Assembly: GCA_030704615.1 (NCBI GenBank)
Contig: CM060733.1
Coordinates: forward strand, 3,596,001-3,660,000
Origin: Takakia lepidozioides
Taxonomy: Eukaryota > Plantae > Bryophyta
Direction: 5' to 3'
Length of the DNA stretch: 64,000 bases
This document shows positions 22,389 through 51,862 of this stretch, one piece after another. A program made the translations under genes and the position numbers. The stretch's first letter is position 1, and the number at the start of each line of letters is the position of its first letter. A model generated the notes under the pieces. That model saw nothing but the letters and a program-made list of their open reading frames with translations. It made no database searches and had not been told where the DNA came from.

Positions 22389-22574
22389 CCCTTTGAGCTG
22401 GAGCCAAAAGAGGGCCTCACCCTTGTTAATGGGACGGCAGTGGGGTCAGGCTTGGCATCAACGGTCTGTTATGATGGAAATGTGTTAGCCCTACTTGCTG
22501 AGGTTCTCTCAACCCTCTTTTGCGAGGTGATGCAAGGAAAGCCAGAGTTTGCTGATCCATTAACTCACAAGCTG
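22389..22574 (+). pseudogene. PAL: Captured phenylalanine ammonia-lyase fragment
   Basis: [62 protein letters not shown] matches the conserved PAL core segment. Confidence 0.92.
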
Positions 22575-22970
22575 GAATTGTACCAGATGTCATTCTGAAC
22601 ACTGCCCTGGCGGACAGGTATGCCAAATGTGGGTGCATTGTCAGACCTGCAATTGTACAAAATGTCATTCAGAACAATACCCTAGAGTCCCTCCTCGTGA
22701 AGAAAGCTGCGAGAATTGTGGTAATTTCGGGTGGTTGGAGAAGAACTCCAATTTACGCAAGCGCATTTCCGAGCTACTTAATTTTCTAACTCTCGTCGGA
22801 CTACGGGACGTGGAACACTTCCTAGTTTAGCTTGCTTCTAGCGCGGGTCCCACTTGTATCTTGTACTTGACTGAAGCGACGAGCTGGGCGAAACCTTGGA
22901 GGGCGAAGTTGTGTGAAGGAGAATTTGTATGGGTCTAGTAATGGATGGCCGGAGATGCTGGAATGTGTAG

Positions 22971-23120
22971 GATGGCGAGGAGGGGTTTTTCAGGATTAAG
23001 ACCACAGCCACACTTCGAAAGCTGATGCATGCATACTGCGACCGTCGGTCAGTTGATCCCAGCTCTATTGCCTTCCTTTTCGATGGCAGACACCTTCGCG
23101 CTGAGCAAACCCCTGCCGAG
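22971..23120 (+). pseudogene. SUMO: Captured SUMO internal exon with flanking intron sequence
   Basis: ag|[50 protein letters not shown]|gt, 150 nt; closely resembles the middle exon of plant SUMO1. Not shown in the ORF track. Confidence 0.92.
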
Positions 23121-23299
23121 GTTATTCTCGCTCATTTTTCTTCTGTGTTCTTCCAAAGCTGACAGGATTCTCATTGAGCTGCTAAAAGTGGTATATGTGT
23201 AAGTTTATTATGTAGTGCAGTCTTTGAAATGTCTGGTCTTGCCAAAAGTGGCTGTTAGGGCTGTTGTTTGGATTGGACCTGTGATGGGTATATGACGGC

Positions 23300-25040: not shown

Positions 25041-25104
25041 ACAGTTATTCATGTTGTAGACAGCATAAAGTAGAGGGAGTGTTTGAGAGAGATTCGTCAT
25101 TGCA

Positions 25105-25514
25105 TAATGTTACCCTGTTTGTGGCTCAGGGTATATATATGCTGGTGGCGGGATTTTCCCGACTCCCCAAATATCTGCCTAAGGCCGTCTGGCGCTACCG
25201 TATGTCTTACATAGGCTTCTATATGTATGCTCTATCAGATCGATACCAACCGAAGCAAGTGGGAAGATTTGGCAGTTGTCTTTGGCATGGTCATTGGCTA
25301 CAGACTTATCTTCTTCCTCATGATAAAGTTTACTGAGGATGTGAGCCCAATCCTCCGCTCGCTCCTTGCCAAGCCTGCCCAGGGCTGCCTGACACGGAAA
25401 AATTCGGCTGTCCAGAACACAATTCGACCCCTCTCTATGACACCATCCCCTGTCCATGATGCTGCTCCGCTGCGGTATTCCACAGGCAAGCAATTTGGTG
25501 TGTCCCCATGCTGA
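25105..25514 (+). pseudogene. Captured ABCG half-transporter (WBC/ABCG11-like) C-terminal fragment
   Basis: QGIYMLVAGFSRLPKYLPKAVWRYRMSYIGFYMYA, then internal deletion, then YQIDTNRSKWEDLAVVFGMVIGYRLIFFLMIKFTEDVSP...*. Confidence 0.85.
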
Positions 25515-28500: not shown

Positions 28501-28579
28501 ACCCTCTCTTTCTCTCTCTTTCTTTACAGAAAACAACGTCTTATCAGTACGCTCTCTCTCTCTCTCTCTCATAATGTGG

Positions 28580-31500: not shown

Positions 31501-34500
31501 GGTCCATGGTGACACTGTCAAAGCTGGAATTGAACCAGATGTCATCCTGAACACTGCCCTGGTGGACATGTATGCAAAATGTGTGCATTGAGGCTGGACT
31601 TGAGGGGGATGTCCCTGTGGGGACTGCCCTTGTCAGCATGTATCGCAGGTGTGAGAGTTTGACGGATGCCACCCGAGTATTTGACGTGCAATGCCCAAGC
31701 GAGATGGGCTCTCATGGACTGCTATGATTGCAGGATCTGCTCAGCATGGTCATGGTCTTTTTAACTCTTTCAGCGCATGCAAAGAGAAGGCATGAAGGCA
31801 GATATTGTCTCCTTTATTAGTGTCCTCAACGCTTGTGCTGGCCCGGAGGCTTTAGAACGGGGCAAGCAGCTCCTTGCCAGCATCATCAAAACTGAATTTG
31901 AGTCAGATGTTGGACTCGGGAATGCCCTTGTCAGTATGTATTGCAAGTGCAGGAGTGTGATGGATGCACTCAATGTGTTTGACAGAATGCCTAAGCGAGG
32001 TGTGGTCTCATGGACTGCGATGATTGGAGGATGTGCACAGAGTGGTCATGGTGAGGAGGCTTTCAAACTCTTTCGACAAATGCAAAGAGAGGGTGTGAAG
32101 CATCCCTGGAACAGGGCAAGTGGGTCCATGCCTACATTATCAAATCTGTGTGTGAGTCAGATGTCTACGTCAGGAATGCCCTCATTGATTTGTATACCAA
32201 ATGTGGGAGTGTAGAGGATGCACGGGAGGTGTTTGACAAAATTCTTAAACCAGATGTGGTCTCATGGACTGGATGATTATAGGATACGCTCCAGCATGGG
32301 CGTGGTCATGAGGCTCTCCAACTGTTTGAACTGGTGTGAAGCCAAATGAGGTCACATTTATTGGTGTTCTCTCTGCATGCAGCCATTTGGGCCTTGTAGA
32401 TGAAGGTGGTCATTATTTGCAATCCATGTGTCAAGAGCACGGCAGTACACCAACAGAAAAGCACTACACCTGCATGGTTGACCTCCTTGGCCGTGCAGGG
32501 CGCTTGGATGAAGAAGATTTCATTGCCAACATGGCACTCAAACCAGGTGCTTCAGTGTGGGGGGCCTTGCTTGGTGCCTGCAGAATCTATGGAAATGTGG
32601 AGTTAGCAGAGTGTGCTGCAGAATGTATTTTCAAGGTGGAATCACAAGATGTATACATTTGCCGTTGGAGATAGATCTCACCCACAAGCAGAGGAGATCT
32701 ATGATGCGTTAGAAAGATTGACTTGGCAGATTAAGGAGGCTGGATATGTGCCTGAGACACGCTTTGTGTTGCGTGATGTGGATCAGCAGATGAAGGAACA
32801 GACTCTTTACCACCACAGCGAAAAGCTGGCCATAGCTTTTGGGCTCATTAGCACACCCCCTAGGACCCTGTTGCTGTCGGTATATCCCGAGTGGCAGGAT
32901 CGTCTGCGTAGAGAAGTGCAGGAGGTTTGCAAAGGCGCGTCTCCTGTTAGCCAGAAACTCGGCAAGCTGAAACTTGTGAGTTCTGAGCCTCAAATATCAA
33001 ACCATCTTGAGCAAGTGTTTAGATTCTCTTTCGCCTATCAAGCCATCAGGGTTTCCTGTCTCTATGCTGCCCTCTACATTGTATACAAGACTAGGGACTG
33101 ATTGGTTGTTTTGGTGTACACTGTTTCACAAATGTCGTCAGAGGTCCGTGGTGACATTGTCAAAGCTGGAATTGCACCAGATTCATCCTGAACACTGCCC
33201 TGATGGACATATGCCAAATGTGGGTGGATCGAGGATGCGAAGGGAGTTTTCAACACTGTGGTTGAAAGAAATGTGGTGTTGTGGAACGCTATGCTTGCAG
33301 GGTATGCACAGCAGGGGCACGGGATGGAGACTTTGGAGACCTATTAGAGTGTGTGTACAGAAGCATCCAAGAGGGCCAGATTTCAAGCACAAGATTACCT
33401 ATGATTTTGTCAGTTAGCTCGTTAGCTCGGAGCAGGGATAGAGTGTGGGTCCATATTCATCCAAGAGGCCAGATTTCAAGCACAAGAGTACCTATGATTC
33501 TATGTGGATCGATAGCTACAAGAAACCTGCATGGGTAAATGGTCAACTAGAAGCCGCAGAAGCAGCGACACAATTGATAAAATCAGGCATTGCTAATCAA
33601 GGCACCTTCTTCAACACATTTCACCCAGTTTTTCCCTCACAACAAGAAAGCAGCCAAAAACAGGTAACAGAGATGAGGAGAAGCTGTGGAATGAATACTT
33701 TTCTGACCACATAACTTTTGTGTGCGTGTGCAAGCCTGGCAGCCCTGGAAAAGGGCAAAGAGGTCCATGGTTGCATCGTCAAAGCTGGAAATGTACCAAA
33801 TGTAATTCTGAACAATACCCTTGTGGACATGTATGCCAAATGTGGAGGGAGTGTTCAACAATATGGCCGAATCTGCCTGTTTTGCCCTCTCATCAGACTC
33901 AGCCCTGAGATGCATATTGAATTCTGTAAGTTAGCTTGTTGGGTGTATCTGTGGTGGTTAGGAGTGACTTTGACAAGTTACTGCCGATGTGGCAGCAGGA
34001 AAGTATCCAAAAACAGATAACATAGATGAGGAGAAGCTTGTTGACGTTTGTTTGCATTTGCAATGTGTGTGCAAGCCTGGCAGCCCTGGAAAGGTGCAAT
34101 GAGGTCCATGGTGACATCGTCAAAGCTGATTTGTACCAGATGTCATCCTGAACACAGCCCTGCTGGACATGTATGTCAAATGTGAGTGCATCGAGGATGC
34201 AAAGGGAGTTTTCGACAGTATGGCTGAAAGAACTGTGGTGTCGTGGAGGGCGATGATTGCAGGATATGCACAGCAAGGGCCGGGATGGAGGCTTCAGAGA
34301 CCTAATGATGGGGGAAGGGGTGAAGCCCGACCGCATAACGTTTGTTTGCATTTGCAATGCGTGTGCAAGCCTGGCAGCTCTGGAAAGGTGCAAAGTGTCC
34401 ATGGTGACATTGTCACGTCTGGAATTGTACCCAATGTCATTCTGAACACTGCCCTGCTGGACATGTATGTCAAATGTCGAGGATGCAAAGGGAGTGTTCA

Positions 34501-37213
34501 ACAGTATGGCTGAATGAGATGTGGTGTCGTGGAGTGCGATGATTGCAGGATATGCACAGCAAGGATGCGGGATGGAGGCTTTGGAGACCTATGAGCAATT
34601 GATGTGCGAAGGGGTGAAGCCCAACCGCAACACATTTGTTTGCGTTTGCAAGCCTAGGAGCCCTGGAAAAGGGGGAAGAGGTCCATGGTGACATCGTCAA
34701 AGCTGGATTTGTACCAGATGTCATCCTGAACACTGCCCTGGTGGACATGTATGCCAAATGTGGGTGCATGGAGGATGCAAAGGGAGTGTTCGACAATATG
34801 GCTGAATGAGATGTGGTGTCGTGGAATGCAATGATCGCAGGATATGCACAGCATGGTTGTCATAGGGAGGTCCTGCAACTATTTGAAGGAATGCAAAAGA
34901 ACGGCTTGAAGCAGTATGTGTTCTCTCTGCATGCAGCCACACTGGCCTTCTGAATGAAGGTAGACGCTACTTCGATTCCCTGATTCAAGATCATGGTGTC
35001 ACTCCGACAGTATAGCACTTTGGCTGCATGATGGACCTTCTTGGACGTGCGGGACAACTGGATGAGGCAGTGGACCTGATTAATAAAATGCCAATCAATC
35101 CAGATGTTGTGGTGTGGAAGGCCTTGTTTAGTGCCTGCAGAATCCATGACAATGTAGAGATGGATGCTCACCAAGTGTTCAACAGAATGCCTCAACGATG
35201 TTTGATCATGTGGAACATAATGTTGGCAGGATTTACCAAGCACGGGTGTGGTAGGAATGCTTTGGAGACCTATGAGCAAATGCTGCACGAAAGGGTGAAG
35301 CCCAACCACTTTGTGTTTACAATGCGTGTGCAAGCCGGGGAGCTCTGGAAAAGGGGAAAGAGGTCCATGGTGACATCGTCAAAGCTGGAACTGTACCAGA
35401 TGTCATTCTGCAAACTGCTCTGGTGGACATGTATGCCAAATGTGGGTGCATTAAGGATGCGAAGGGAGTTTTCAACACTATGGCTGAACGAGATGTGGTG
35501 CCATTGGACGCGATGCTTGCAAGGTATGCACAGCAAAAACGTGGTATGGAGGCTTTGGAGACTTATGAACAAATGATGGGAGAAGGGGTGAAGCCCGACC
35601 ACATCACGTTTGGGTGCGTTTGCAATGCGTGTGCAAGCCTGGCAGCTCTGGAAAGGGGTAAAGAGGTCCATGGCGACATCTTCAGAACTGGAATTGTACC
35701 AGATTTCATTCTGAACAATATCCTGGTGGACATGTTTGCAAAATGTGGGTGCATCTAGGACACAATGGGAGTGTTCAACACTATGGCTAAACAAGATGTG
35801 GCGTCGTGCAAGCCTGGCAGCCCTAGAGAAGGGCAAAGAGGTGCATGGGGATATCGTCAAAGCTGGAATTGTACCAAATGTCATTCTAAACACCGCCCTG
35901 GCAGCTCTGGAAAAGGGGAAAGAGGTCCATGGTGACATCTTCAGAGCTGGAATTGTGCAGCTGTCATTCTAAACAAAGCCCTGGTGGACATGTTTGCAAA
36001 ATGTGGGTGCATCTACGATGCAAAGGGAGTGTTCGACACTATGGCTGAACAAGGTGTGGTGTCGTGGAGTGCGGTGCTTGCAGGGTATGCACAGCAGGGA
36101 CGTGGGATGGAGGCTTTGGAGACCTATGAGCAAATGATGTGCGACGGGGTGAAGCCCGACCACATCACGTTTGTGTGCGTTTGCAGTACGTGTGCAAGCC
36201 TGGCAGCCCTGGAAAAGGGTGAAGAGGTGCATGGCAACATCGTCAAAGCTGGAATTGTACCAGATGTGATCCTGAACTCTTCCCTGGTGGACATGTATGC
36301 CAAATGTGGGTGCATGGAGGATGCAAAGGGAGTGTTCGACAATATGGCTGAATGAGATGTGGTGTCGTGGAATGCAATGATCGCAGGATATGCACAACAT
36401 GGTTGTCATAGGGAGGTCCTGCAACAATTTGAAGGAATGCAAAAGAACGGCTTGAAGCAGTATGTGTTCTCTCTGCATGCAGCCCCACTGGCCTTCTGAA
36501 TGAAGGTAGACGCTACTTCGATTCCCTGATTCAAGATCATGGTGTCACTCCGACAGTATAGCACTTTGGCTGCATGATGGACCTTCTTGGACGTGCGGGA
36601 CAACTGGATGAGGCAGTGGACTTGATTAATAAAATGCCAATCAATCCAGATGTTGTGGTGTGGAAGGCCTTGTTTAGTGCCTGCAGAATCCATGACAATG
36701 TAGAGATGGCTCAACGTGCGGCAATATCTATCCTCAAGTGGAATGAACAGGATGCCGCGACTTATGTTGCTATCAAACATCTATGCTCCAGCTGGCAGGT
36801 GGGTTGATACTGTAAAGGTGAGAAGAATGATGAAGGTCAGAGGGGTTGAAAAGGAGCCAGGTCGCTCTGCATCCCAGAATTAAGGAAATCCATGCTCAGC
36901 TGAGAAGATTGTCTGGGAAGATGAAGGAGGCGGGGTATGTGCCTGACAGGCGCTTTGTATTGCATGATGTGGGAAGGAGGAAAAGGAATTTTCTCTTTGC
37001 CACCACAGTGAGAAGCTGGCCATTGGTTTTGGGCTGATCAGCATGACCCCTAGGATGCCTCTCCGTCTCATCAAGAATCTTCGAGTGTGTGGTGACTGCC
37101 ACACCTCCACCAAATTCATCTCAAAGATTGTTGGCCGAGCAATTGTTGTACGGAACGCTAACCGCTTTCACCACTTTGAAGATGGGATTTGTTCTTGTGG
37201 TGATTACCGGTGA
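28580..37213 (+). pseudogene. PDF-motif + PLS-PPR + E/DYW pseudogene mosaic (unit 3), from at least two PPR donors
   Basis: ORF 29034..29642 links PRGPDFKHKITYDFLWI to the PPR N-terminus. A more divergent PPR-DYW lies at about 31590-32865 ([17 protein letters not shown]). DYW end near 37210. Confidence 0.9.
32863..32975 (+). pseudogene. Captured cytochrome P450 fragment (CYP72-clan-like I/J helix region)
   Basis: TLLLSVYPEWQDRLRREVQEVCKG...LGKLKL followed by a gtgagt donor; in frame with the DYW domain. Confidence 0.8.
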
Positions 37214-37936: not shown

Positions 37937-40577
37937 TTCTAGCGACGGCCGAAGGTCGGAAGCTAGTTTAGCGTAGAGCATAGTGCCAGGTCATCGTAAA
38001 CACGTCATCGTAGCCAAGTCATCGTAGACACGTCATCGTCGTCGTCAATTTCTTTGGAATCTGCCCGGACGGCCCGCGCGAAAAACCCCAAAGCGCCAAT
38101 TTGTTTTGGAATTGCCCGGATTGCGTGCTCCCACTTTGTTGTGCGTTTCTTGTTTCTTCCTCATGTTTATCAGGTTCGGCGTCTGCTCATCTGTACTGTG
38201 GTGGAGGCGTGGTGGTTCTCACAGAGCGATCCAACAGTATCTGACTACACACACAAGCAGCACACACAAGAGGTCCTTTTGGATTGATGGTCGATATCCT
38301 CCATTGGTCATGACATGAGGTCAAGGACAATGTGGTGAGGGCAGCTTCTTCTTTCTCCTATTTCAGCATGTTTTTCCCTCTCATCAGACTCGGCCCTGAG
38401 ATGCATATTGAATTATGTACTTTAGCTCGTTGGGTGGATCTGTGGTGGTTAGGAGTGACTTTGACAAGCTACTGTCGGTATAGCAGCAGGAAAGTATTCA
38501 AAAACAGATAACATAGGGTAGGAGAAGCACCTTCTTCAACACATTTCACCCTGTTTTCCCCTCTTATCAGAATCGGCCCTACATTTCCATGTTGAATTCT
38601 GCAAGTTGATTGAGTGAACCTTTGGTAGTTTGAAGTGACCTTGACATGATACTGCCAATGACACAGAAAAGTATCCAAAAACTGATAACATAGGGTAAGA
38701 GAAGCACCTTCTTCAACACATTTCACCCTGTTTTCCCCTCTTATCAGAATCGGCCCTACATTTTCATGTTGAATTTTGCAAGTTAGTTGATTGAGTGAAC
38801 CTTTCGTAGTTTGAAGTGACTTTGATATGATACCGCCAATGTGACACATGAAAGTATCCAAAAATAGGTAAACAGAGATGAGGAGAAGCTGTGGGATGAA
38901 TACTTTTCTGACCCCAGCCAATGGTGGGACAAACGAGGCTAAAAGATGAATGCCTGCAGATTATCAGATGTCATTCTGAAGGCTGCACACACAAGCTGCA
39001 CACACAAGAAGTCCTTTAGGGTTGATGTTCGGTCAAATCCTCCATGGGTCATGACACAAGGTCAAGGACAATGTGGTGAGTGCACCTTCTTCTTCAACCT
39101 ATTTCTGCCTATTTTACCCTCTCATCAGACTCGGCCTTGAGATGCATATTGAACTCTGTAAGTTAGCTCGTTGGGTGGATCTGTAGTGGTTAGGAGTGAC
39201 TTTGACAAGTTATTGCTGATGTGGCAGCAGGAAAGTATCCAAAAACAGATAACATGGATGAGGGGAAGGCGCCTTCTTCAACACATTTCACCCTGTTTTT
39301 CCCTCTTATCAGAATCTGCCCTACATTTGGTACAATTCCAGCTCTGAAGATGTCACCATGGATTCTGCAAGTTAGCTGATTGAGTGAACCTTTGGTAGTT
39401 TGGAGTGACTTTGACTTGATACTGCCAATGTGACACAGGAAAGTATCCAAAAACAGGTAAACAGAGATGAGGAGAAGTTGTTGGATGAATACTTTTCTGA
39501 CCCCGGCCAATGGTGGGACAACCAAGGCAAAAAGGTGAATGTCTGTCAAATTACCAGATGTCATTTTGAATGCAAAGCTGGAATTGTACCAAATGTCATT
39601 ATGGACACTGCCCTGGTGGACATGTATGCACGTGCATTGAGGACGCAAAGGGAGTACTTGACAATATGGCTGAATGAAATGTGGTGTCGTGGATATGCCC
39701 AGCGTGGTTGTCATAGGGAGGTCTGCAATTATTTGAAGGAATGCAAAAGAACGACTTGAAGCTTGACAGTATCACCTTCGTACATGTGTTCTCTTTGCAT
39801 GCAGCCACACTGGCCTATTGAAGGAAGACGCTACTTTGATTCCCTGAGTCAAGATCATGGTGTTACTCCGACAGTAAAGCACTTTGGCTGCACGGTGGAC
39901 CTTCTTGGACTTGCGGGACAACTGGATGGGGCAATGGACCTCATTAAGAAATGCCAATCAATATTCCAGATGTTGTGGTGTGAAAGGCCTTGTTAGGTGC
40001 CTGCAGAATCCATGGCAATGTGGAGATGGCTGAACGTGCGGCAACATCTATCATCAAGTGGGATGAACAGGATGCTGTGACTTATGTGCTGCTATCAAAC
40101 AGCCATGCCGCAGCTGGCAGGTAGGGCGATAGTGCAAAAGGTGAAAAAAATGATGAAGGTTAGAGGGGTTAGAAATGAGTCAGGTCGCTGCTGCATTAAG
40201 GTTGGCAACAGGGTGCACACCTTCGTTGTAGATGACAAGTTGCATGAGAAGTTTGTCTGGGGCAGATGAAGGAGGCGGGATATGTTCCTGACACGCGCTT
40301 TGTATTGCATGATGTGGGGGAGGAGGAAAAAGAATTTTCTCTTTGCCACCATAGTGAGAAGCTGGCCATTGGTTTTGGGCTGATCAGCACGACCCCTAGG
40401 ACGCCTCTCCCTCTCATCAAGAATCTTCAAGTGTGTGGTGACTGCCACACCTCCACCAAAGTCATCTCAAAGATTGTGGGCCGAGCAATTGTTGTACGGG
40501 ATTTCCTGAGAGTATTGACCATCATGTATTGTTGAGTGCATTTCCTATGGCATATCCACAGGAAATGATAGTGGGGT
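37937..40577 (+). mobile_element. Helentron/DINE-like element, unit 4 (interrupted at 40577), with PDF/PPR/DYW fragments
   Basis: 5' terminus at 37937; EEKLLDEYFSDPGQWWDN; [22 protein letters not shown]...CGDCH. The shared 3' sequence breaks off at GATAGTGGGGT. Confidence 0.75.
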
Positions 40578-40587
40578 GTGAGAGCGT

Positions 40588-41076
40588 TGTCAAGTTATTT
40601 TACCACTAGTGTGAAACTAGCTAGGAAATAGCTAGCTTTTACATATTGACATTTGGGATTGGCCCAAGTGTCAATCCAGGGGTCAAGGCAGATTTAGGCC
40701 CTGGAGTGGTTATCTTCACGGCAAGCGCGGGAGGCTCATCTTTCTCGAGTGATAAAGAAGAAGAATACAAGCACAAGCTCATGCGAGCTCACAAAGCTGA
40801 AGCATAAACTCATGCATATATAACCTCATCACTCAAATATAAGTCAAGCCAAGTGCACCCCACGCCATGGGGAATCCACACTACGGCGCCATAGCTAGGC
40901 GCGGTGAGGCTCAACTCGAGAAAGATGAGCCTCCTGCGCTTGCCGTGAAGATAACCACTCCAGGGCCTAAATCTGCCTTGACCCCTGGATTGACACTTGG
41001 GCCAATCCCAAATGTCAATATGTAAAAGCTAGCTATTTCCTAGCTAGTTTCACACTAGTGGTAAAATAACTTGACA
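40588..41076. repeat. Near-perfect TG...CA-bounded inverted repeat (163 bp arms 40588-40750 / 40914-41076)
   Basis: The arms are reverse complements with one visible mismatch; about 163 bp spacer. Confidence 0.92.
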
Positions 41077-42293
41077 GTGTCTCTCATGCTCCTCCATCGT
41101 AACACTAAAGATGATGATGCCATCTATGTAGCACCGAGCAAAGTCCACCTCTGCTAGAATCCTATCCATGACTCTCTGAAACTCTGCAGGAGCATTCTTA
41201 AGCCCAAATGGTAAGAACCGCCACTGATATAGGCAATCCTTGCCGTGCTCATTGATCCCCCAAAATGTCGTCTTCTGCTTGTCCGCCTCCTTGATTGGCA
41301 ACTGGTGATATCTGGATCGTAAATCCAAAGTGCTAAAGACCTTAGCATGCCCGATGGTATCAAAGATCTCCTCTGGTGTTGGCATGGCATACTTATCGGA
41401 CTTGGTCTGACGATTTACAGGCCGGTAATCACCGCACATACGTCTCTCCGTCCAATTGCCATAGACATCCTTCTTGGCTGGCATCACTGTGGCTGAAGCA
41501 TACTCTTCACCAGAGAGCTCTACCAAACCTGCCTCCCAGAGATCTTGAGTCCTCATCTGAATCAAAGACCTCTCCATGTTACTGTATCTATAGGTCTCCG
41601 AAAGATTGGCGTGTCAGTGGCCAAATCAATACGGATCTCTTGACCCTTCAGTGCTCCCAAGTCCTTCAAACTGAAGGCAAAGCAATTCCTGTAAGCCCTC
41701 AGGAACCGCCGTATACGTCGTCTCTCTCCTCCGGTGACAATGGGTCCAATGTTAGGCTCCCAATTGTCCTCCGTAACTGCAACCTTAAGTCCAGTGGGCT
41801 TAGAGGTAGAGGACGTGTCCAGTGGTTGCTATGTTGCAACCTCTTGAGCAGTACTCCTTACCTGCTCAGTCAGTGACAAAGCCTCATCCTGCCCCATCAT
41901 CTCATCCTCAAGGACTTCCTCCACCCGAGAAAAATCCCCAACCTCATCTTTCATCGCCACCTTGGCTGCCAACTCCCTCTGAACCTCGAGCACCTCCCAC
42001 GTGTGCCATGGATGCCTGCACCCCGTGGTCCTCACATGCTTGCCCCCACTCACTGCCTGTACCGTCTCGGTAGGCAGAGAGACCATCGAGGGAAGTGTAC
42101 TCCGCACTCTGCGTTGCTTAGCCATAGCCAAGCTGATAATCCAAGTCAAGCAATTGAGATCCATTGCTTGCCCCAACACTTGACGACGTGATGCCTCAGA
42201 AAGAGACGACACCGCCGTGGTACCAGTGGTAAAACCTATTGCCCGTTCACGCTCGTCAGCATTAGGCTCCACTAACTGCTGCAACTGAGCATC
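41077..42293 (-). pseudogene. MTase C-terminus (motifs IX-X) and RT N-half
   Basis: ERERAIGF...RRQVLGQAM continues in frame past the stop. RT: RRMCGDYRPVN, FSTLDLRSRYHQ, PFGLKNAPAEFQR, CYIDG (YIDD mutated). Confidence 0.88.
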
Positions 42294-45200
42294 CTACAGG
42301 AGGCCAGGTCCACTATCCCGGAAAGCATGCGATCCTGGGAAGCTGAGCAGTGTAGGTAATGCTGCTCGTGGTTGACCCACCTTGTTGACCACTGCCAAAG
42401 GCGAACGGTCATCGTGTCTCACACGCTGAGACTGCCTCCCTGTGTCCAGAATGTTATCCATTGTGAGATGTGCTGGCCGCTGCACCCCATCGAATGCACG
42501 CTTGAGCAATGCGGGTGGCATCAAGTTAGTCCACCATAGCCGTGGACGATGAGCCCGTGACCCCACTGTAGCTGCATCTAGCAACACTGCTGACCCAAGC
42601 CACAACCGGACTTGATGCACACTGGCCATCACCCTGGCCCGAGAATCGCCCATCAGTGGCACATTCTCCAAGATATATGCTGGAGATACAGCTTGATGAA
42701 GCTGCAAGTGGCGCAAAACCCGCACCATCTCCCAAAACAGACCTGACCTCGAGTCTCGCAATCCATTGCCATGCCCAGCTGATGAATGCCTTTGGCAAGG
42801 CCAACCTGCCACTACCAGATAAATGGAGCCAACCCGCTCCAAATCCTGCGCCTCCAGCAACGAAATGTCTGCTGGCAAGGCCTGCTGATATCCACAAATT
42901 GCAGACACCGACAACAACTCAGGGTACCGCTGCACCAACTGAGCAACATGATGAAGTGAAACGCGTCGTGCAGTCTCATTCTTCTCCACATACAGGTAAC
43001 ACCGAACTTGTACACCTGCCTGTAACACAGCAGCCAATCCGGTGTTGATCCCGCTAAACAAGTCCAGAAGACAAATGCCTTCATCCGGATACTGCCACAC
43101 AGGTATGGTGTCCAATGGAGACAACTGAGGTGGTCCTGGTGCAATCCCCGCACTCTCCTCCTCTCCTGACGGTACAAAAGCCTCCACCCAGGCTTGTTGC
43201 ACCCGTCGATCAGCATCCCGCTGCAAATCCTTGCTCGTGCCCCACAATGGAGTCTGAGCAACCATGGTAGGCAACTCCGCCATACCATACATGTCATCCT
43301 GCTCTCCTGGAGGTGGCACATCCTCTGAATGAGCGTTGCCCTCAAGCAACTCTCTAGGCCAACTCACTGCCGCTGTGAATGCTGCTAGTGTCGGCATCTT
43401 GCCTCGCTGGGCAACCGCAACTCCTCCTATGAACATCACAGGGAGCTGCACATGTCGGCCCTCCCCTGACTGCCATGCAGGCCTATAGGAAGCTGACTCC
43501 TCCCAAAAATCCAGGGTGAAGCCCATGGGGTACAACACTGCCCCACCAACCAGGTCATCGTATGAGACCGTGTCTGTCACAATGGCCTTGGCTCGCATCA
43601 CTGAGCCATGTGTAGGGTGATCCGGCCGTAGTCTGATAGCCAACTCACGCCGTATCATGCCCCGAGCCTGCTCTGATCCTCCCAGAGACGTCTGTATCTG
43701 GAAAGGACAAGGCTCCATATCCACCTCCGTGAGGCCCAAGCCTGCAATAGCAGCTCTGCCCAACATCAATGGCTGAGCTCCCGAGTCCAACAAGACCCGC
43801 AGTGGCCGGCACCTCTTGCCTGCCGGTCCACTCAAACAGAAAATGCCATCCTGGTTGTCTAACATGACAACTCCAGGTGTCACCATGGCGCGCTCAATGG
43901 CTGGCCTAGCTGGCAGCTCCATCAACCTGGCAGCTGCAGCTTGCCATGGCGCCGCCGTTGCAGTCTTGACCCTCAAATCCGAGGATCCCTCCGGCACTAC
44001 ACCTCCCACTATCTTCACAGAAGATGAAGTAACCTCCCCACTCTCACAGAGTGTAGCTGCCAGCCTGAACACCTCAGCTGGTCTTACCCCCGGCGTCGCA
44101 ATCATGGTAGCCGAGAACAATGGAGCCTGGCACACAGATGTGGCCGCTTCTAGCAGCACACTAGCTGCCGTAGCCTTGGCAACACTAGGTAGTGGTGCTA
44201 CCCGTGTAGCTCTCCCCAATGGCATAGTAACCTCCGCCTCAGTAACAGTCGGGCGAGAACTAGGTGCCATGGATGGCGTCGACACTATCTCCGCCAATGT
44301 GAATGACTGAGGAAGCCTAGCCTGACGGCTTGCTTCCCCACGCTGTGGATCCAACTCCACCTCTGCACCTCGTGGCTCAAGAACTCGTGCTGCTCCTCGA
44401 GTCACGGCTGCAGCAGACTCCACCTGCACTAGTGGTAATGCTGCTCCACACATGAATCCCATGCCTCCCATATCTCCTCCCTCAGGAGCAGGAGGTGGAC
44501 CATCCGGCCTTAGAGCCGGTACCACTTGAGCTGTAGTCATGGCAGCGAGCCTCTGCTCTAGCTGCTGAAGCCGGTTGGTCATGCCTTGGTCAACACCCTG
44601 ACCTCTGCGTCCTTGGCCATGTTGAGCTTGCCCTTGGCCTGCACCTCGTGGCTGGCCACCTCGTCCTCTTTGGGCAGCTCCACCTAGCCCCCGGCCACCA
44701 TTGTTCCCTTGGAACTGGTGTGGGCGCAACTCAGGATGCAAACCATAACACTGGGCCTCTCCATGCCCGTGCTTGCCACAATGCCCACACTGCAACTGTG
44801 CATGTTGTGCATGTGCCGGCCCTTTGCCTCGGCAATCCTTCTTGACATGGGGTCCTCCACATGCCCAGCACACCACATCCGCCCGTTGTTGGCCAGCAAA
44901 TGAAGGGAGAGACCCCTGCATCTGAGGTCCTCTCTGCCCTTCCCTGAGCTTCACCTGAGCCCCCTTATTGCCTTGAGCACGTTGAGGTAGTGATTGGCTA
45001 GGAGCACCACTACCCCGTGGTGTCTCCTTAGCAAATCCCACCATGACCACTCGTTCCTCCACCATGTTGAGCTCTATCCGCTCTGCCAGCAAAAACACAT
45101 ACTCTTGCAAGCTCCGCAACTTCTCTGTCCTCACCCCTTGGTAGTTCCCTCTCAACTCTTCGAAGAACTCCACAACAAGGTTGAAGGCAGGCACGGGTAC

Positions 45201-45818
45201 TAGTGTTGGTGCGGTAGTAGCTTGGGTGGACGTCGTAGCTACTGTACCACCAGTCCCACTAGTCCCACTGCTACTTGCTGAAGCTGCCGGTGCAGCGGCA
45301 GGTGTAGCCACTGCCCTCGTGGCTCTAGTGCCCCTAGTGATGGAGACATAGTCGGGTGACCAGTACATCCTCCACTCCTCAATCTCAACCTCATGCCCCC
45401 GCCTGAACTCATGGTAATCATCCATAGGCGGCCCCTCAAGGTGCTGAAACGGCCCCTTCCATGCCATGAAAGGCGTAAATAGTTGTGGATTACTCATTTG
45501 CTGCAAATCACACCAACTATCAAACTCTTGGATAAAATCATCCAACTTGATGGTGCCCACCGCCCCAGAGTACCTTCGTGGCCCCTTGGTAGCTCCATAC
45601 ATATCTTCCATTGTGTCCCACAACAATGGCAAAGAAACAACTTGCACCGCCGGTATGAGTCCTCCTGATTCACAATCCGAATCAGAACCTTCCGTAGAAA
45701 ACACAGGAGGTGAAGGTGGCCTAAACCGCACACCTCGTCTCGTGTACCCACTAGTATCGCTAGTGCTCGAACCGGCATTGTCCCCAGCAACTAGTGGCAC
45801 CTCCGTGTTGACACTCAA
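42294..45818 (-). CDS. Gag (two CCHC knuckles), aspartic protease and C5 cytosine methyltransferase polyprotein (premature stop at 42294)
   Basis: CWACGGPHVKKDC and CGHCGKHGHGEAQC; VLLDSGAQ; MTase motifs I LDLFSG, II YVEK, IV AGWPCQ, SGLFWE, VI YILENV, VIII AHRPRLWWTN. Confidence 0.92.
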   Translation of the reverse strand: MSVNTEVPLVAGDNAGSSTSDTSGYTRRGVRFRPPSPPVFSTEGSDSDCESGGLIPAVQVVSLPLLWDTMEDMYGATKGPRRYSGAVGTIKLDDFIQEFDSWCDLQQMSNPQLFTPFMAWKGPFQHLEGPPMDDYHEFRRGHEVEIEEWRMYWSPDYVSITRGTRATRAVATPAAAPAASASSSGTSGTGGTVATTSTQATTAPTLVPVPAFNLVVEFFEELRGNYQGVRTEKLRSLQEYVFLLAERIELNMVEERVVMVGFAKETPRGSGAPSQSLPQRAQGNKGAQVKLREGQRGPQMQGSLPSFAGQQRADVVCWACGGPHVKKDCRGKGPAHAQHAQLQCGHCGKHGHGEAQCYGLHPELRPHQFQGNNGGRGLGGAAQRGRGGQPRGAGQGQAQHGQGRRGQGVDQGMTNRLQQLEQRLAAMTTAQVVPALRPDGPPPAPEGGDMGGMGFMCGAALPLVQVESAAAVTRGAARVLEPRGAEVELDPQRGEASRQARLPQSFTLAEIVSTPSMAPSSRPTVTEAEVTMPLGRATRVAPLPSVAKATAASVLLEAATSVCQAPLFSATMIATPGVRPAEVFRLAATLCESGEVTSSSVKIVGGVVPEGSSDLRVKTATAAPWQAAAARLMELPARPAIERAMVTPGVVMLDNQDGIFCLSGPAGKRCRPLRVLLDSGAQPLMLGRAAIAGLGLTEVDMEPCPFQIQTSLGGSEQARGMIRRELAIRLRPDHPTHGSVMRAKAIVTDTVSYDDLVGGAVLYPMGFTLDFWEESASYRPAWQSGEGRHVQLPVMFIGGVAVAQRGKMPTLAAFTAAVSWPRELLEGNAHSEDVPPPGEQDDMYGMAELPTMVAQTPLWGTSKDLQRDADRRVQQAWVEAFVPSGEEESAGIAPGPPQLSPLDTIPVWQYPDEGICLLDLFSGINTGLAAVLQAGVQVRCYLYVEKNETARRVSLHHVAQLVQRYPELLSVSAICGYQQALPADISLLEAQDLERVGSIYLVVAGWPCQRHSSAGHGNGLRDSRSGLFWEMVRVLRHLQLHQAVSPAYILENVPLMGDSRARVMASVHQVRLWLGSAVLLDAATVGSRAHRPRLWWTNLMPPALLKRAFDGVQRPAHLTMDNILDTGRQSQRVRHDDRSPLAVVNKVGQPRAALPTLLSFPGSHAFRDSGPGLL

Positions 45819-46489
45819 CCGGTCATGAACATGTCCTTAACCCCCTCTCCACAAGGTAACCGGGTAGAGAACCTGTTGCGGCTTATGGTTTGGAATACTA
45901 AGTTCCTAACATAGCCTACACCTGTACCTGCATCCACCGTAAGCACTCCTATGGTTGGCTGGTCATCACCTCCAACCTCACCACAGGAGAAACAATGATG
46001 GTCTGGCTGGTCATCACCCCAGCCTCACCATCGACAGCATGCTCTAGGATTGGCCGGTGATCAAATCCGGACCGATCACCTATAAAAACAAGCGCCCACA
46101 CAAAACTAGCATGGCGCATAGTCAAGCATGCAGGTATACAGGGGATCCAAACACAAGAAATCAGAATGACAACTCCCCCACACCAAAAACAACTCCACGG
46201 TGTTGCTCCTGCAATGACACCCCAGCCCAAACCCGGACTGACTCTTGCCTCCACCTACGGAAAGGTCTTGGCCTAATGAGAGGGTGGAAACTACGAGGAA
46301 GAGTTGCTAAAGCAATGCCTAACCCCAGCATGCCCTCATCCCAACACTCTTCCTCTCCTCTCTTCCCTCACTTGCATGACCATGGGAATATCATGAAGAT
46401 ACTCCTCAAACCGCCCTCCTCTAGCTTCAAAATTCGGCCTTCAAGACCACATGCCAATCCTTAGGCAGTCCACCAGTGCCTCCACGAGT

Positions 46490-47147
46490 CAGCACAGGCC
46501 GTCCACAGGTCAACACGGGCCACCACAGACCAGCACAGGCCCACATAGCTCACTGGTCACAGCCGTCACAGCCCCGCACAGGCCACAGCCCTACACAGGT
46601 CACAGGGTCACAGGGTCACAGCCCCACTGGCCGCAGTCTGTCACAACCCGTCACAGCCCCAAAGGCCACAGCCTATCACAGCCCCTCACAGCCCCTCACA
46701 GCCCCTCACAGCCATAGGCCACATGGCACAGCCTCTCACAGCCCTACACAGGTCGCAGGGGTCACAGCCCCAAAGGCCACAGCCCCTCACAGCCGTCACA
46801 GCCCCACATGCCACATGGCACAGCGTGTCACAGCCCTATACAGGTCACAGGGGTCACAGCCCCAAAGGCCACAGCCTGTCACAGCCCCTCACAGCCCCTC
46901 ACAGCCCCACAGGCCATAGGGCACAGCCTGTCACAGCCCCTCATAGCCCCACAGGCCACAGGGCACAGCCTGTCACAGCCCCTCACAGCCCCACATGCCA
47001 CTGGGCTTAGCATATCACAGCCCGCCACAGCCTGTCACAGCCCCTCACAGCCCCTCACAGCCCTGTGGCCTGTGGGGCTGTGACGGGCTGTGACGGGCTG
47101 TGAGGGGCTGTGATAGGCTATGCCCTGTGGCCTGTGGGGCTGTGACG
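46490..47147. repeat. CACAGCCCC(T)-based minisatellite in the retroelement 5' region, switching strand at about 47065
   Basis: Degenerate 9-10 bp units; (TCACAGCCCC)n turns into (GGGGCTGTGA)n. Confidence 0.9.
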
Positions 47148-49387
47148 GGAGCATGAGAGATACCTTCAGGTGGTACTGGAGTGCTTGAGAGCGCACGGAT
47201 TGAAGTTGCATCCGGGGAAGTGCAAGTTTTTCCACAACCAGATTGAGTATCTGGGTCACATGATATATCATGGAGGATTGGGGGTACAGCAGACTAAGGT
47301 AGAAGCCATTGCACAAATTCCACGCCCCACGGATGTGAGCCGAGTTCGAGCTTTCATGGGGTTGGCAAACTATTATAGACGGTTTGTCAAGGGATTTAGT
47401 ACCATTGCAAAGGCTCTAACCAAGCTGACCAAGGTGGACCAGGAGTGGCAGTGGGAAGATGAGCAGGAACGAGCTTTTCAAGAGCTCAAGGCGAGGTTGA
47501 CCTCGGCGCCTATCCTAAGACGACCTATCAGGGGGCGTCCCTTTCAGCTGCATACGGATTGGAGCATGCTGGGGCTTGGAGCGGTGCTCACACAGGTGGA
47601 TGATGAGGGAAGAGAGTTCGTCGTGGCTTATGCTAGCCACTCGAACAACGCTGTAGAGGCTAAGTACAGCTCATATGAGGGAGAGTGCTTAGCTGCAGTG
47701 TGGGCCGTGGCATACTTCAGGTGCTATCTATACAAAAATCTTTTCACCCTTGTCACGGATCACCAACCACTCAAGTGGTTGATGGAGTCAGACAAGTTTA
47801 CGGTGAGACGGAGGAGATGGTGCCGGGATGGCACGCTTCTGCATTTTTGTGTATCTTGGCATCGGGAGGTCAGGTTGGACCTACAATAGGGATGACTGTA
47901 GACGGAATGTTTGAGGACCCTGAGACTAGTGATGAGCCAGGTGGTGCCAGAGATATACATGAGGATTCGCCTGTGTTGGACTACCTCCGCACGGGAGACA
48001 CGGCGGCCACTGTGACTGCCAGGAAGAGGGATCAGATCCTGCAACGAGCCAAGAGGTTCAAGTGGGAGGGGATACACCTACTTAGGATGGTCGGGTGAGG
48101 ATTGTGCCTCACCCCACACAGCGTGCACGGTTAGTGCGGCATGCCCATGAGGAGTTGGGGCATTTTGGAGTGTGACGCACTCACAGTTTACTGCAAGGGC
48201 AGTATTGGTGGCGTGGTATGCATACAGAGGTGCAACAGTTCGTGGCTAGGTGCATGGTGTGTGACAGGGTGCGTGCTTCATTCAACACCCCTATACCACA
48301 GTTGCATCCTTTACCAATCATGGGATTGGGCTACAGGTGGAGTCTTGACTTTGCAGGACCGTTGCCACTGACTATGCGCCACCACAGATATGTGTTGGTG
48401 ATGGTGGAGCACTTCTCCAAGTGGATTGAGTTGGTTCTATTGCCTGACAAGGCTAGTGAGGGGGCTGCGTATGCATTCTTGGATCGTGTGCTTAGTCGAT
48501 TTGGTGCTCCAGCTGAGGTACTCACGGACCAAGGGAGAGAGTTCTTGGGGGAGTTTCAGGCTTTGTGTGATGAAGCCTTGATAGACCACAACACCACTTC
48601 TCGGGATCATCCTGAGGCCGATGGCTTAGCAGAAAGAGTTGTTCAGACGGTGAAGAGGGGTTTGCGCAAGTATGGCTTGCAGAAGGGACATCTAGTAGAT
48701 TGGGATCTTCAGGTTCCTTGGTTAGCCATGGGCTACAGGTTCAGCAAACAAGCATCACTTGCCTCCTTCTCACCATATTTCCTTCTCTTTGGCCGAGAGC
48801 CGGATTTGCCTGCAACCATTCGTAGGGACACTGCTCAAGTCCTTAACCTTGACGATCCGGACGTATAGGTACGTGTATGTGATCAGCGTGCAAAGTTGTT
48901 CAAGAAAATCATGCCCATGGCTTTTGAGAACCCTGCCATTGCACAGCACCGTGATACGTTGAGGTATGCCACTATACGTGGTAGAGGATATCGTCCTGGG
49001 GTTCGGAGGTTTAGCCCTGGTGACTATGTTTATTTGCAGCAGACTGCTCCTACGACTCTGGATGTTACTGCAGGGCGTGTTATTCTGAGGGTTTGAGAGG
49101 TGTTGCCCTCAGGGGTCCTGATCTTGGAGGGTCGGGCTGGCATGACTTGGAAGGACCATGTGTGTAATTGTGCGCCATGTCACCTTCCCAATGTCGATGG
49201 CAGAGTTGACCCAAACTTGACAGTGGTACCTGCAGGTTTGAGGTGCATGCTCTGTGGGTCTACCAAAGGGGCAGCCACCATGCTGGTGTGTGATCGATGC
49301 TCAAGGGGTTGGCATATGGGATGCTTGACACCACCTCTTGAGAAGGTTCCTGAGGGAGATTGGTTGTGTCTACACTGCTTGGGATAG
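47148..49387 (+). pseudogene. RT C-half, RNaseH, integrase and PHD finger
   Basis: GLKLHPGKC...IEYLGH; LHTDWS...GECLA...VTDHQPL; HEELGH...CMVC; WSLDFAGP, LTDQGREF, DGLAER; CMLCGS...MLVCDRCSRGWHMGCLTPPLEKVPEGDWLCLHC*. Confidence 0.92.
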
Positions 49388-49835
49388 TGGCAGTGGACAT
49401 GACTGGAGGCAGCTAACAAGACATGGGAGGCCAAGCTCATAGGAGTCAATACATGAGATCCCAAGCTCAAGTTCACAGGTTGCAAGACGGCGACTAACGA
49501 TGGGGCAACTCTTGCACCCGGCCTCTTGATCTATCGAGTTTGAGTGTAGTAGGGATAGTGGTGGAGGACTTAGTGAGGCTATGGTCACTATCACATCTTG
49601 TGGCTACCTGGACTTAGAGGGACCTAAGCACCAGCTAGGGGGGCGATTGTGTGGACTAGTGACTGCCATAGTGGGCAGCATAGTGGCAGCCTAGTGACTG
49701 ACTAGTTGTAGCCTAGTGGTTGGATTAGTGGCTGGACTAGTGGTGGACTAGTGGTATACTAGTGTGTGGTGTGCACATGTGTTGTGTGGTTTTGGACAGC
49801 GATGTAGTTGTGTAGCGATATATATGCGCACGACA

Positions 49836-51862
49836 GCATTGAGGATACGAAGGCAGTGTTCAACAATATGGCTGAATAAAATGTGGTGTCATGGACCGCG
49901 ATGCTTGCAGGGTATGCACAGCAGGAGAGCAAGACGTAGGCTTTGGAGACCTATGAGCAAATGATGGTGGAAGGGGTGAAGCCCGACCACATCACATCTG
50001 TGGGTTTGCAAGCCTGGCAGCCCTAGAAAAGGGCAAAGAGGTGCAAGGTGACATCGTCAAAGCTGGAATTGTACCAGATGTCATTGTGAACACTACCCTG
50101 GTGGACATGTATGCCAAACGTGGGTGCATTAAGGATGCAAAGGGAGTTTTCAACACTATGGCTGAACGAGATGTGGTGTCATTGAAGACGATGCTTGCAG
50201 GGTATCCACAGCAGGGACGTGGTATGGGGGCTTTGGAGACCTATGATCAGATGATGGGCAAGGGGTGAAGCCCAACCACATCACATTTCTATGCATTAGC
50301 AATGCGTGTGCAAGCCTGGCAGCTCTGGAAAAGGGCAAAAGAGGTCCATGGCGACATGGTCAGAGTTGCAGTTGTACCAAATGTCATTATGAACAATACC
50401 CTCGTGGACATGTATGAAGGGAGTGTTCGACAGTATGGCTGAACGAGATGTGGTGTCATGGAGTGCGATGATTGCAGGATATGCACAGCAAGGGCGCGGG
50501 ATGGAGGCTTTGGAGACCTATGAGCAAATGATGTGCGAAGGGGGTGAAGCCCAACTACATGACGTTTGTTTGCATTTGCAATGTGTGTGCAAGCCTGGCA
50601 GCCCTGGAAAAGTGCAAAGATGTCCATGGTGACATTATCAAATCTGGAATTGTACCCGATGTCATTCTGAACACTGCCCTGGTGGACATGTATGTCAAAT
50701 GTGCGTGCATTGAGGATGCAAATCGTGTGTGATGATTGCAAGATATGCACAGCAAGGGTGCGGGATGGAGGCTTTGGAGACCTATGAGCAAATGATTTGC
50801 GAAGGGGTGAAAACCAACCACATCACATTTGTTTGTCTTTGCAATGCGTGTGCAAGCCTGGGAGCTCTGGAAAAGGGGAAAGAGGTCCATGGTGACATCG
50901 TCAAAGCTGGAATTGTACCTGATGTCATCCTGAACACTGCCCTGGAGGACACATGTGGCTGCATTAAGGATGCAATGGGAGTTAATTTCAACACCATGGT
51001 TGAACAAGATGTGGTGTCGTGGAACGCGATGCTTGCAGGGGTATGCACAGCAGGGGCGTGGGATGGAGGTTTTGGAGACCTATGAGCAAATGATGGGGGA
51101 AGGGGTGAAGCCACATCACGTTTGTGTGCGTTTGCAGTTCATGTGCAAGTCTGGCAGCCCTGGAAAAGGGCAAAGAGGTGCATGGTTGCATCGCCAAAGC
51201 TGGAATTGTACCAGATGAGATTCTGAACAATACCCTCGTGGACATGTATGCCAAATGTGGGTGCATCAAGGATGCGGAGGGAGTGTTCAACAGTATGGCT
51301 GAACGAGATTTGGTGCTATATCAAACATCTATGCTGCAGCTCTCAGGTGGGATGATACTGCAAAGGTGAGAAGAATGATGAAGGTCAGAGGGGTTAGAAA
51401 GGAGCCAGATGACAAATTGCATCCCAGAATTAAGGAAATCCATGCTGAGCTAAGAAGATTGTCTGGGCAGATGAAGGAGGCGGGGTATGTGCCTGACACA
51501 CATTTTTTATTGCATGATGTGGAGGAAAGGAATTTTCTCTTAGCTACCACAGTGAGAAGCTGGTCATTGGTTTTGGGCTGATCAGCACGACTCATCAAGA
51601 ATCTTCGAGTGTGTGGAGACTGCCACACCTCCACCAACTTCATCTCAAAGATTGTTGGCCGAACAATTGTTGTATGGGACGCTAACTACTTTCCACCACT
51701 TTGAAGATGAGATTTGTTCTTGTGGTGATTACTGGTGAAAGGATGTTTTCTTGGAAAGATGCTAGTGTCTTGCTTCATTCATTGATCTGTGTAGCTACTC
51801 AGACCATCCACCAATTCCTGATAGTGGGGTCTACCCGGCATAGGTAGGAAGTCAGCCCACAA
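49836..51862 (+). pseudogene. PPR-DYW pseudogene mosaic plus start of the shared Helentron 3' region, cut by the CACTA insertion
   Basis: PLS repeats; CSCGDYW* at about 51738; 51313-51862 parallels 20989-21530. Confidence 0.88.

Follow-up and report, generated by a model that had tools for sequence, protein, structure and literature searches.

Retrotransposons with a cytosine methyltransferase (DNMT) of their own are known, as the preliminary description of the present locus had stated, from dinoflagellates and Klebsormidium, from which the accessible text of de Mendoza et al. 2018 (PMC5890265) describes SymbioDIRS-Dnmt3 and KnitGypsy-Dnmt3, respectively. KnitGypsy-Dnmt3 of Klebsormidium nitens combines gypsy domains with an intronless, non-permuted Dnmt3-type domain that retains its catalytic residues and is under purifying selection, and it is bounded by DIRS-like repeats in the order A1-ORFs-B1-A2-B2. 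According to the peer-review file of that paper its DNMT is encoded together with the reverse transcriptase (RT) and RNase H in one ORF. The isolated enzyme did not methylate yeast DNA, a result regarded by its authors as inconclusive. SymbioDIRS-Dnmt3 likewise carries a DNMT3, which methylates CG de novo in yeast, but it is a DIRS-class element of a dinoflagellate host and is described as an independent acquisition. The EpiLTRs of Cymbomonas and Euglena, as far as described in the consulted parts of bioRxiv 10.64898/2026.05.21.726589, are LTR-type elements with both a cytosine DNMT and a domain that reads chromatin, and the pairing of writer and reader within an element has thus been published before; however, their reader is a chromodomain, they possess an added adenine methylase and their DNMT is sister to DNMT4, whereas the element reported here displays a PHD finger and a DNMT of the DNMT3 type. 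In the searchable literature such elements have been described only from algae, and the land-plant family reported here adds bryophyte hosts.

The window, i.e. the whole stretch of 64,000 nucleotides of Takakia lepidozioides contig CM060733.1 that was analysed, contains a dead copy, with an internal inversion, of a Ty3/gypsy family that liverworts and peat mosses have as well. Its extent is placed at 40588-49835 on the basis of termini that look like split direct repeats, and it is flanked by PPR, E and DYW genes, which, like the position of the element in the DNMT tree, point to a land-plant host. The features of this copy are the following:

40584..40587, plus strand: candidate 4-bp target-site duplication, left copy (weak; one mismatch to the right copy)
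40588..40750, plus strand: left terminus, the first 163 nt of terminal repeat A, beginning TGTC (inverted repeat I3)
40751..41076, minus strand: inverted 326-nt copy of repeat A adjoining the RT break, similar in length to the ~340-nt A2 of the relative L046
41077..41613, minus strand: N-terminal half of the RT (Pfam RVT_1, 9.4e-20), with YIDG in this copy and a frameshift near 41592
41614..41822, minus strand: start of ORF2, in frame with ORF1, its first 80 codons without Met
41823..41831, minus strand: ORF1 stop in the readthrough context UAG CAA CCA (UAG-CAR-YYA)
41832..42140, minus strand: ORF1 tail, about 100 residues past motif X
42141..43100, minus strand: C5 cytosine methyltransferase of the DNMT3 type with motifs I-X, interrupted at 42294-42296 by a stop specific to this copy
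43500..43799, minus strand: aspartic protease with LLDSGA (43793); weak Pfam Asp_protease_2 match (E 0.09), 45-59% identity to relatives
44740..45611, minus strand: gag with two zinc-knuckle-like motifs (44870, 44789), 61% identical to Marchantia P0003
46042..46070, minus strand: leader motif of 29 nt, 93% conserved with the relative L033 (blastn E 3e-6)
46478..47136, no strand assigned: tandem-repeat array in the leader, holding one inversion junction; about 47064-47136 repeats the array on the opposite strand
47137..47800, plus strand: C-terminal half of the RT and RNase H (Pfam 1.2e-31)
48083..49240, plus strand: integrase with zinc-binding domain, DDE core and C-terminal region (Pfam rve 8.4e-14, Integrase_H2C2 4.8e-8), with three stops and a small deletion
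49244..49378, plus strand: Cys4-His-Cys3 PHD finger without the Trp of the methyl-lysine cage
49637..49643, plus strand: polypurine-tract-like run, common to L033 and L046
49648..49835, plus strand: terminal repeat B (TG...ACGACA), right terminus
49836..49839, plus strand: candidate target-site duplication, right copy, within a PPR motif in decay

The order protease, RT, RNase H, integrase, together with the DDE integrase, identifies the element as Ty3/gypsy, and both are undamaged in L033, an intact distant relative. We regard L033 and L046 as eukaryote DNA that was binned wrongly: among 401 genomes of the phylum listed for L033 the DNMT domain occurs in one bin only, and that bin also contains gypsy contigs without a DNMT. 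The protease of L033 is recovered by Pfam with E 7.8e-4. No Pfam match to gag was obtained in the window copy, and the homologs of its gag begin where the window copy has the Met at 45611. The RT halves at 41093 and 47148, on opposite strands, are connected in contigs. The preliminary description had called the copy dead on account of the internal inversion, the YIDG and the stop at 42294-42296, all of which were found again; the frameshift and the integrase stops are further lesions. The codon at 42294-42296 has a different letter in contigs of other host-family copies. Two features had been overlooked, namely the left end at 40588 and a second in-frame stop at 41829-41831, which is a feature of the family.

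The termini may resemble those of KnitGypsy-Dnmt3. The 3' end of L046 (one contig, from a related subfamily) reads PPT-B1-GC-A2-B2, B1 and B2 being the same along 106 nt, while the window copy has A at its start and a single B at its end, and contigs of other host-family copies lead from the end of repeat B into the start of terminal repeat A. Judged from these arrangements, the ends look like split direct repeats of the kind reported for KnitGypsy-Dnmt3. No LTR pair is present in the window and no full-length linear copy of the family was seen; an ordinary LTR element that had lost its 5' LTR became the less likely reading once the B1-A2-B2 layout had been seen in L046. Repeat B is followed by GC-TGTC without TGG, i.e. 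there is no tRNA primer site at this place, and no primer of reverse transcription was recognised. Phygy and Selgy of REXdb (PMC6317226), likened here by description only, are also gypsy elements outside the chromoviruses, occur in seed-free plants and have target duplications of 4 bp, and Phygy has a size of 8.6 kb against about 9.2 kb here; unlike the present family, they are given primer sites for tRNA (Trp, Ala) and no additional domain in the consulted parts of that source. An NCGN target preference as in Phygy was considered and dropped, with empty PPR sites mostly differing from it and the flank of L046 misfitting. The 15 nt on the left agree with the usual empty PPR site in 8 of 15 letters, a level reached by 2.2% of background positions.

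Analysis of the region between protease and RT recovered a Pfam DNA_methylase match (E 1.2e-12 at 42297-43100), with the motifs DLFSG (43064), GWPCQ (42806), ILENV (42674), SRAHRPR (42560), IX (42254) and X (42176) following each other on the minus strand in unpermuted I-to-X order and with the FxG, PC, ENV and RxR residues in place. Its nearest solved relative by sequence is DNMT3A, and profile comparisons favor DNMT3A (7e-26) over DRM (4e-16), HhaI (2e-9) and the DNMT2 tRNA methylases (2.5e-4). DNMT3A is also the best match of the predicted fold (model pLDDT 95.4; Foldseek TM 0.73/0.82 over 319 columns). The N-terminal half of the profile aligns with residues 216-352 of DRM chains, in their C-terminal part, and hence the domain is not permuted as in DRM. 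The earlier view of a DNMT3-type domain lying between protease and RT, and lacking the circular permutation of plant DRMs, is thus borne out by Pfam, motif positions, profile and fold. Across 224 near-full domains, a count that omits those matching fewer than 270 query residues, the catalytic residues are almost invariant (C102 97%, E145 99%, R185 98%, R187 98%). Identity to Marchantia amounts to 69-72% in the DNMT, 61% in gag, 58-59% in the protease and 74% in RNase H. Judged from such protein conservation, the DNMT is under strong constraint, in line with the selection described for KnitGypsy-Dnmt3. Neither the CpG content nor the mutation context of the window copy carries a mark of self-methylation: the CpG observed/expected ratio of 0.49-0.50 is near the 0.39-0.44 of the flanks, and the decay (9 CG, 7 CHG and 10 CHH among the 26 transitions in the 40 listed of 660 rows) fits ordinary host methylation. 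No DAM domain was detected by Pfam in the window copy or L033.

Two homolog searches recovered 43 and 56 homologs. Relatives with 56-73% identity are found in Marchantia, Calypogeia and Sphagnum, and more distant ones in Closterium and a chlorophyte. Named hosts include Marchantia polymorpha, M. paleacea, Riccia, Calypogeia and three Sphagnum species; M. polymorpha alone has at least five full-length first ORFs of 1278-1281 aa, annotated as hypothetical proteins. In the DNMT tree the window sequence groups with named bryophyte sequences (support 1.0), with deep nodes weakly supported, and the tree of RT thumb and RNase H gives the same grouping, ((window, Marchantia), L033), at 0.95. Both are FastTree trees with five divergent outgroup rows; the DNMT tree comprises element domains matching at least 240 query residues. 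No protein named as Klebsormidium occurs among the homologs retrieved. One of six loci in the genome scan was close, the metagenome scan gave no close relative (15 loci, partial matches of 27-46% identity), nor did the viral scan (17 loci, 24-40% identity), and the Atlas search returned generic DNA_methylase clusters only. Closterium and a chlorophyte also belong to the lineage, with the DNMT placed after RNase H, so that the acquisition appears to predate the K. nitens lineage. Probably the present family and KnitGypsy-Dnmt3 go back to a single old acquisition in green plants.

The family departs from KnitGypsy-Dnmt3 in the placement of its DNMT. The Gag-protease-DNMT frame closes at an in-frame UAG-CAA-CCA, the TMV-type readthrough motif, and a stop thus separates the DNMT from the RT in the same frame, in place of the common ORF of the Klebsormidium element. 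In L033, ORF1 ends in UAG-CAA-UCA, in frame with an ORF2 of 1047 aa whose first Met, residue 117, lies within the RT. The stop context is seen in DNA in these two subfamilies only, Marchantia and Sphagnum being represented by protein ends; at equal base use CAR-YYA has a chance of ~0.002 per site. At 41823-41831 no variant of 4% or more occurs in sequencing runs X1, X6 and X7 of the host family, which cover the site (X8 has no cover there); with only 8 of 121 places variable, the nine constant bases are not significant on their own. Among the 53 proteins that extend as far as motif X in the DNMT clade (66 tips, support 0.956), 48 terminate without an RT, and 41 of these do so 59-190 residues past that motif, some of those without a species name possibly at contig ends. 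RNA structure 3' of the stop ranks 2nd of 54 windows in L033 and only 7th of 39 in the window copy, where it is weak. Readthrough is used by SIRE1 to extend into env. Known cases of gag-pol readthrough are MuLV and some copia elements, where the layout is rare, and UAG-CAR-YYA is the TMV consensus shown to function in plant cells, according to the consulted parts of PMC3159437 and PMC3441728; the present family has this exact Type I signal, in frame and conserved in two subfamilies, but past protease and DNMT rather than past gag.

The PHD finger at the end of the integrase, also reported earlier, was recovered by Pfam (E 5.6e-11), and in the family alignment the position two residues before its His is Gly or Ala in 71 of 72 sequences and Trp in none of the 72. 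Its nearest solved relatives are CHD4, DPF2/3, the first PHD of KDM5A/B and BAZ2A, a kind of PHD that we take to read H3K4me0. Among 339 retrieved proteins, 47, including one of the chlorophyte Monoraphidium, have the order RT-RNase H-DNMT-integrase-PHD on a single chain, and hence the pairing of DNMT and PHD is not special to land plants. The preliminary description had envisaged a writer plus reader in one polyprotein; this has to be revised, since the conserved stop places RT, RNase H, integrase and PHD past the DNMT and would leave DNMT and PHD on one chain only in a presumably rare readthrough product. Its mention of a PHD in Selgy likewise found no counterpart in the searchable text and supplements of PMC6317226, where the term is absent and the table gives Selgy no extra domain. 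The term is also absent from the searchable text and supplements of PMC5890265, in distinction to the integrase-terminal PHD found here.

These observations lead us to favor, with modest confidence, a mechanism in which ORF1 supplies Gag, protease and DNMT, Pol and PHD are made by readthrough of the UAG, and the DNMT methylates the element's own new DNA prior to integration. RT, RNase H, integrase and PHD would be translated through the leaky conserved UAG; as readthrough would yield Pol as a small fraction of ORF1, the DNMT would very probably be produced at the level of Gag. The protease may then release the DNMT inside the particle, where double-stranded cDNA would be methylated and new copies would arrive pre-marked, a step to which we give slight preference. 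About as plausibly, the PHD would stay on the integrase, bind H3 tails unmethylated at K4 and bias insertion away from active promoters. Only tentatively can these elements be joined into a longer history, in which an ancient green-plant gypsy lineage with DNMT3 and PHD, extending from chlorophytes to bryophytes, exchanged LTRs for DIRS-like split repeats while keeping its integrase, and the branch containing the land plants moved the methylase before a programmed leaky stop, loading particles with de novo methyltransferase at capsid stoichiometry and pre-methylating their cDNA.

An unlikely alternative is nuclear action of the DNMT, either in trans or where the element inserts, in place of action on particle cDNA; made at Gag level, it might methylate the DNA of the host or of competing elements. 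Enzymes of the DNMT3 group methylate de novo, and the stop uncouples the DNMT from the RT, while the argument for action in cis in KnitGypsy relied on their common ORF (PMC5890265, peer-review file). However, the fusion to Gag and protease favors packaging, the DNMT of 89 retrieved relatives sits in Pol, after RNase H, and the K. nitens methylome is described as not unusual in the available text of PMC5890265. ORF2 might also be expressed by splicing across the stop or from a second transcript, with UAG-CAR-YYA incidental, as in Ogre elements, in which stops between protease and RT are removed by splicing. We regard this as improbable: the remaining five of the 53 clade proteins are NCBI gene models that do connect ORF1 to Pol sequences, but the five joins fall at five different points, no Met precedes the RT, and two subfamilies with unalignable linkers both retain ORF1 and ORF2 in frame across a single stop with CAR-YYA. 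Less probable still is that the domain persists as a module that binds nucleic acids or gives protection, or as an RNA methylase, and that DNA methylation is not its role. The inactivity of the K. nitens domain in yeast and the RNA methylation raised for another retro-DNMT class (both in the consulted parts of PMC5890265) would fit such a role, but the conservation of the catalytic Cys, Glu and both Arg, the poor match to DNMT2 and the CG methylation by SymbioDIRS DNMT3-type domains in the same source argue against it. That an ordinary LTR element now in decay captured a host DNMT3 on a single occasion, for which the broken window copy might speak and which copies without the methyltransferase would have indicated, can be discounted: divergent host-family contigs span the DNMT (99 at place 42295 in X1), homologs across bryophytes and green algae carry it, the two trees agree, and the homolog searches already refute it.

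The role of retrotransposon-borne DNMTs has been open since 2018, in part owing to intractable algal hosts and a Gypsy enzyme silent in yeast, and the full-length first ORFs of Marchantia polymorpha make the question testable in a land-plant genetic model. Bryophyte DNMT counts and gene models are suggested to include unrecognised transposon genes, and catalogues based on LTR finders may miss the family if its ends are split repeats. The conserved stop predicts DNMT far in excess of RT and integrase, and such an excess would alter the argument for action in cis only and raise the chance of effects on the host methylome.

The window copy of the element is laid out as follows:

42294-45836, minus strand: frame coding for gag-like sequence, followed by a protease motif and a C5 cytosine methyltransferase (DNMT)
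41077-41613, minus strand: N-terminal half of the divided reverse transcriptase (RT)
47137-49378, plus strand: C-terminal RT half, RNase H, integrase and PHD finger

The methyltransferase scores 48 bits against a Pfam cut-off of 22, and its motifs I to X are linearly ordered. Its nearest solved structure by sequence, by profile and by predicted fold is DNMT3A (pLDDT 95.4, TM 0.73/0.82 for a model with X at the stop codon). The preliminary description, of a C5 methyltransferase with ordered motifs and a PHD finger after the integrase, is borne out. On both sides the element is bordered by decayed PPR genes that carry E and DYW domains and are typical of land plants. Their repeats form a large array (18000-37000, 39300-40535 and 49836-51700; period ~300 nt), in which a DYW domain is truncated at 40502, and ~70 nt of no recognised identity (40503-40575) precede the left end of the element. 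Elsewhere, two pairs of long inverted repeats lie at 510-4255 (584 nt, 97%) and 4336-4780 (174 nt, 93%); between the arms of the first pair is an integrase-zinc-finger-like frame (2355-2813), and the region is possibly another rearranged retroelement.

Contigs from four sequencing runs leave none of the 30 bins of the element region uncovered, with 149,250 contigs aligned in run X1, mostly at 90-99% identity. Where the window has its stop at 42294-42296, other copies show a different letter in that codon in >99% of depth; many of them are free of the frameshift near 41592, and two contigs connect the RT halves across the inversion; because these copies read without them, all three are lesions of the window copy. 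Protein searches recovered 43, 56 and 66 homologs, and a broader search 600 representatives with an E-value of 1e-10 or lower. Named homologs come from Marchantia polymorpha, M. paleacea, Riccia sorocarpa, Calypogeia fissa, three Sphagnum species, Closterium and Monoraphidium, with no match from vascular plants or Klebsormidium among them. In one Marchantia cluster (n=18) at least five members are 1278-1281 residues long with all six checked motifs present. Catalytic residues are 97-99% conserved across 224 DNMT domains, and between window and Marchantia the DNMT is conserved roughly as well as the RNase H. Given the coverage by other copies and the homologs in bryophytes and green algae, the DNMT is a family trait and not a one-off insertion. 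Seven gypsy RT matches also lie on separate contigs of a bacterial genome bin (G001: L033, L040-L048), which are likely eukaryote contamination.

Among 339 retrieved homologous proteins, the DNMT follows RT or RNase H in 89 (47 of them complete as RT-RH-DNMT-INT-PHD), precedes RT in a single chain in 28, and ends a gag-protease-DNMT protein in 38. Closterium proteins are mainly protease-DNMT-RT in one chain. In the DNMT tree (253 rows, 306 columns) the after-RNase-H type, Monoraphidium included, forms one weakly supported group; the window joins named bryophyte sequences (support 1.0), nested in a 0.956-support clade whose proteins stop after the DNMT. The main groupings recur in an RT-thumb/RNase H tree (88 rows). 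This fits long co-inheritance, with the domain moved once and the stop gained later, an order made tentative by the weak deep nodes.

ORF1 (gag-protease-DNMT) of the window runs ~100 codons beyond motif X before it meets a UAG at 41829-41831; CAA CCA and then the RT start of ORF2 come next in the same frame. The three runs with cover show no variant at 4% or more at these nine positions, so the UAG is the family state. The intact 9.2-kb relative L033, whose DNMT is 51% identical and whose linker is unalignable with that of the window, has UAG CAA UCA at the equivalent site; a 1047-residue RT-RH-INT-PHD ORF continues in the same frame, and the first Met of that ORF falls inside RT. Both contexts fit the UAG-CAR-YYA consensus, with which stops are read through efficiently in plant cells (PMC3159437). 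Among 53 clade members reaching motif X, 48 terminate without RT; the other five extend into RT as gene models, each joined at a different point (five points). Bypass of the stop by splicing is the rival explanation, and readthrough is the simplest reading of the conserved stop. Under readthrough the DNMT would be made in the amounts of Gag, the PHD-integrase in those of Pol. In KnitGypsy-Dnmt3 of Klebsormidium nitens the DNMT lies in the RT frame, whereas in the window family a stop separates the two.

No LTR pair is present within the window. A G-run at 49637 lies upstream of a 188-nt repeat B ending in ACGACA at 49835, and in contigs of other copies B is followed by GC and the sequence beginning at 40588 (repeat A), a junction also found in L033. 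A second contig of the bin that contains L033, L046, terminates PPT-B1-GC-A2-spacer-B2-flank, with B1 identical to B2, matching the A1-ORFs-B1-A2-B2 layout given for KnitGypsy-Dnmt3 in PMC5890265 (legend of Fig. 4c, review file). The window copy has A at its start and its only B at its end; its middle is inverted and carries a second A, and the 4-bp repeat in its flanks differs at one position. The element probably ends in split repeats; no full-length linear copy was seen. The 20-nt A2-B2 spacer (L046:2759-2778) begins TGG as in a primer site, its reverse complement presents a PPT-like purine run facing the end of A, and it may prime one strand. Two short non-coding motifs are conserved across subfamilies that lie far apart, the first in the 3' UTR (window 49489-49524, L033:6751-6786), the second, near-palindromic, in the leader (window 46042-46070, L033:8502-8530), and are candidate packaging or dimerisation signals.

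The PHD finger belongs to the kind without the cage tryptophan, which is present in 0/72 of the fingers compared. The solved fingers resembling it, those of CHD4, DPF2/3, KDM5 PHD1 and BAZ2A, are readers of unmodified H3 tails. The PHD was directly seen only in the window copy, in L033 and L046, and in proteins that are algal or unnamed; the Marchantia ORF2 sequence covered stops short of its end. In the Monoraphidium protein P0323, residues 2352-2407, after the PHD, match a PTM/DIR17-like Tudor domain (E 3.8e-5, below the Pfam cut-off), possibly a second chromatin reader in the chlorophyte type. In Chlamydomonas transposons PHD fingers have been described as frequent accessory domains (PMC8557442); for the PHD attributed to Selgy gypsy elements in the preliminary description no confirmation was found.

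Titles and opening abstracts of the papers searched gave no report of DNMT-bearing retrotransposons of embryophytes or of readthrough in such elements; subscription journals, Repbase, figures and bioRxiv supplements lay outside the searches and could hold one. The terms 'Marchantia' and 'PHD' are absent from PMC5890265, and later work of the same group (a paper of 2025 and a preprint of 2026) refers, in the passages covered, to the 2018 streptophyte case alone. Pairing a writer with a reader is not new as a concept, since algal elements with DNMT and chromodomain are already described in that preprint (bioRxiv 10.64898/2026.05.21.726589).

Methylation of cDNA by an element-borne DNMT was proposed in PMC5890265; the inactivity of the K. 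nitens domain in yeast reported there counts against such a mechanism, as does the base composition of the element, which bears no self-methylation signature. We infer all its steps, from particle formation and DNMT release to cDNA methylation and PHD-guided integration. Particles would most likely be built from the plentiful Gag-protease-DNMT protein; the DNMT, set free by the protease, would then most likely methylate the new double-stranded cDNA, and the integrase with its PHD would prefer chromatin without H3K4 methylation.
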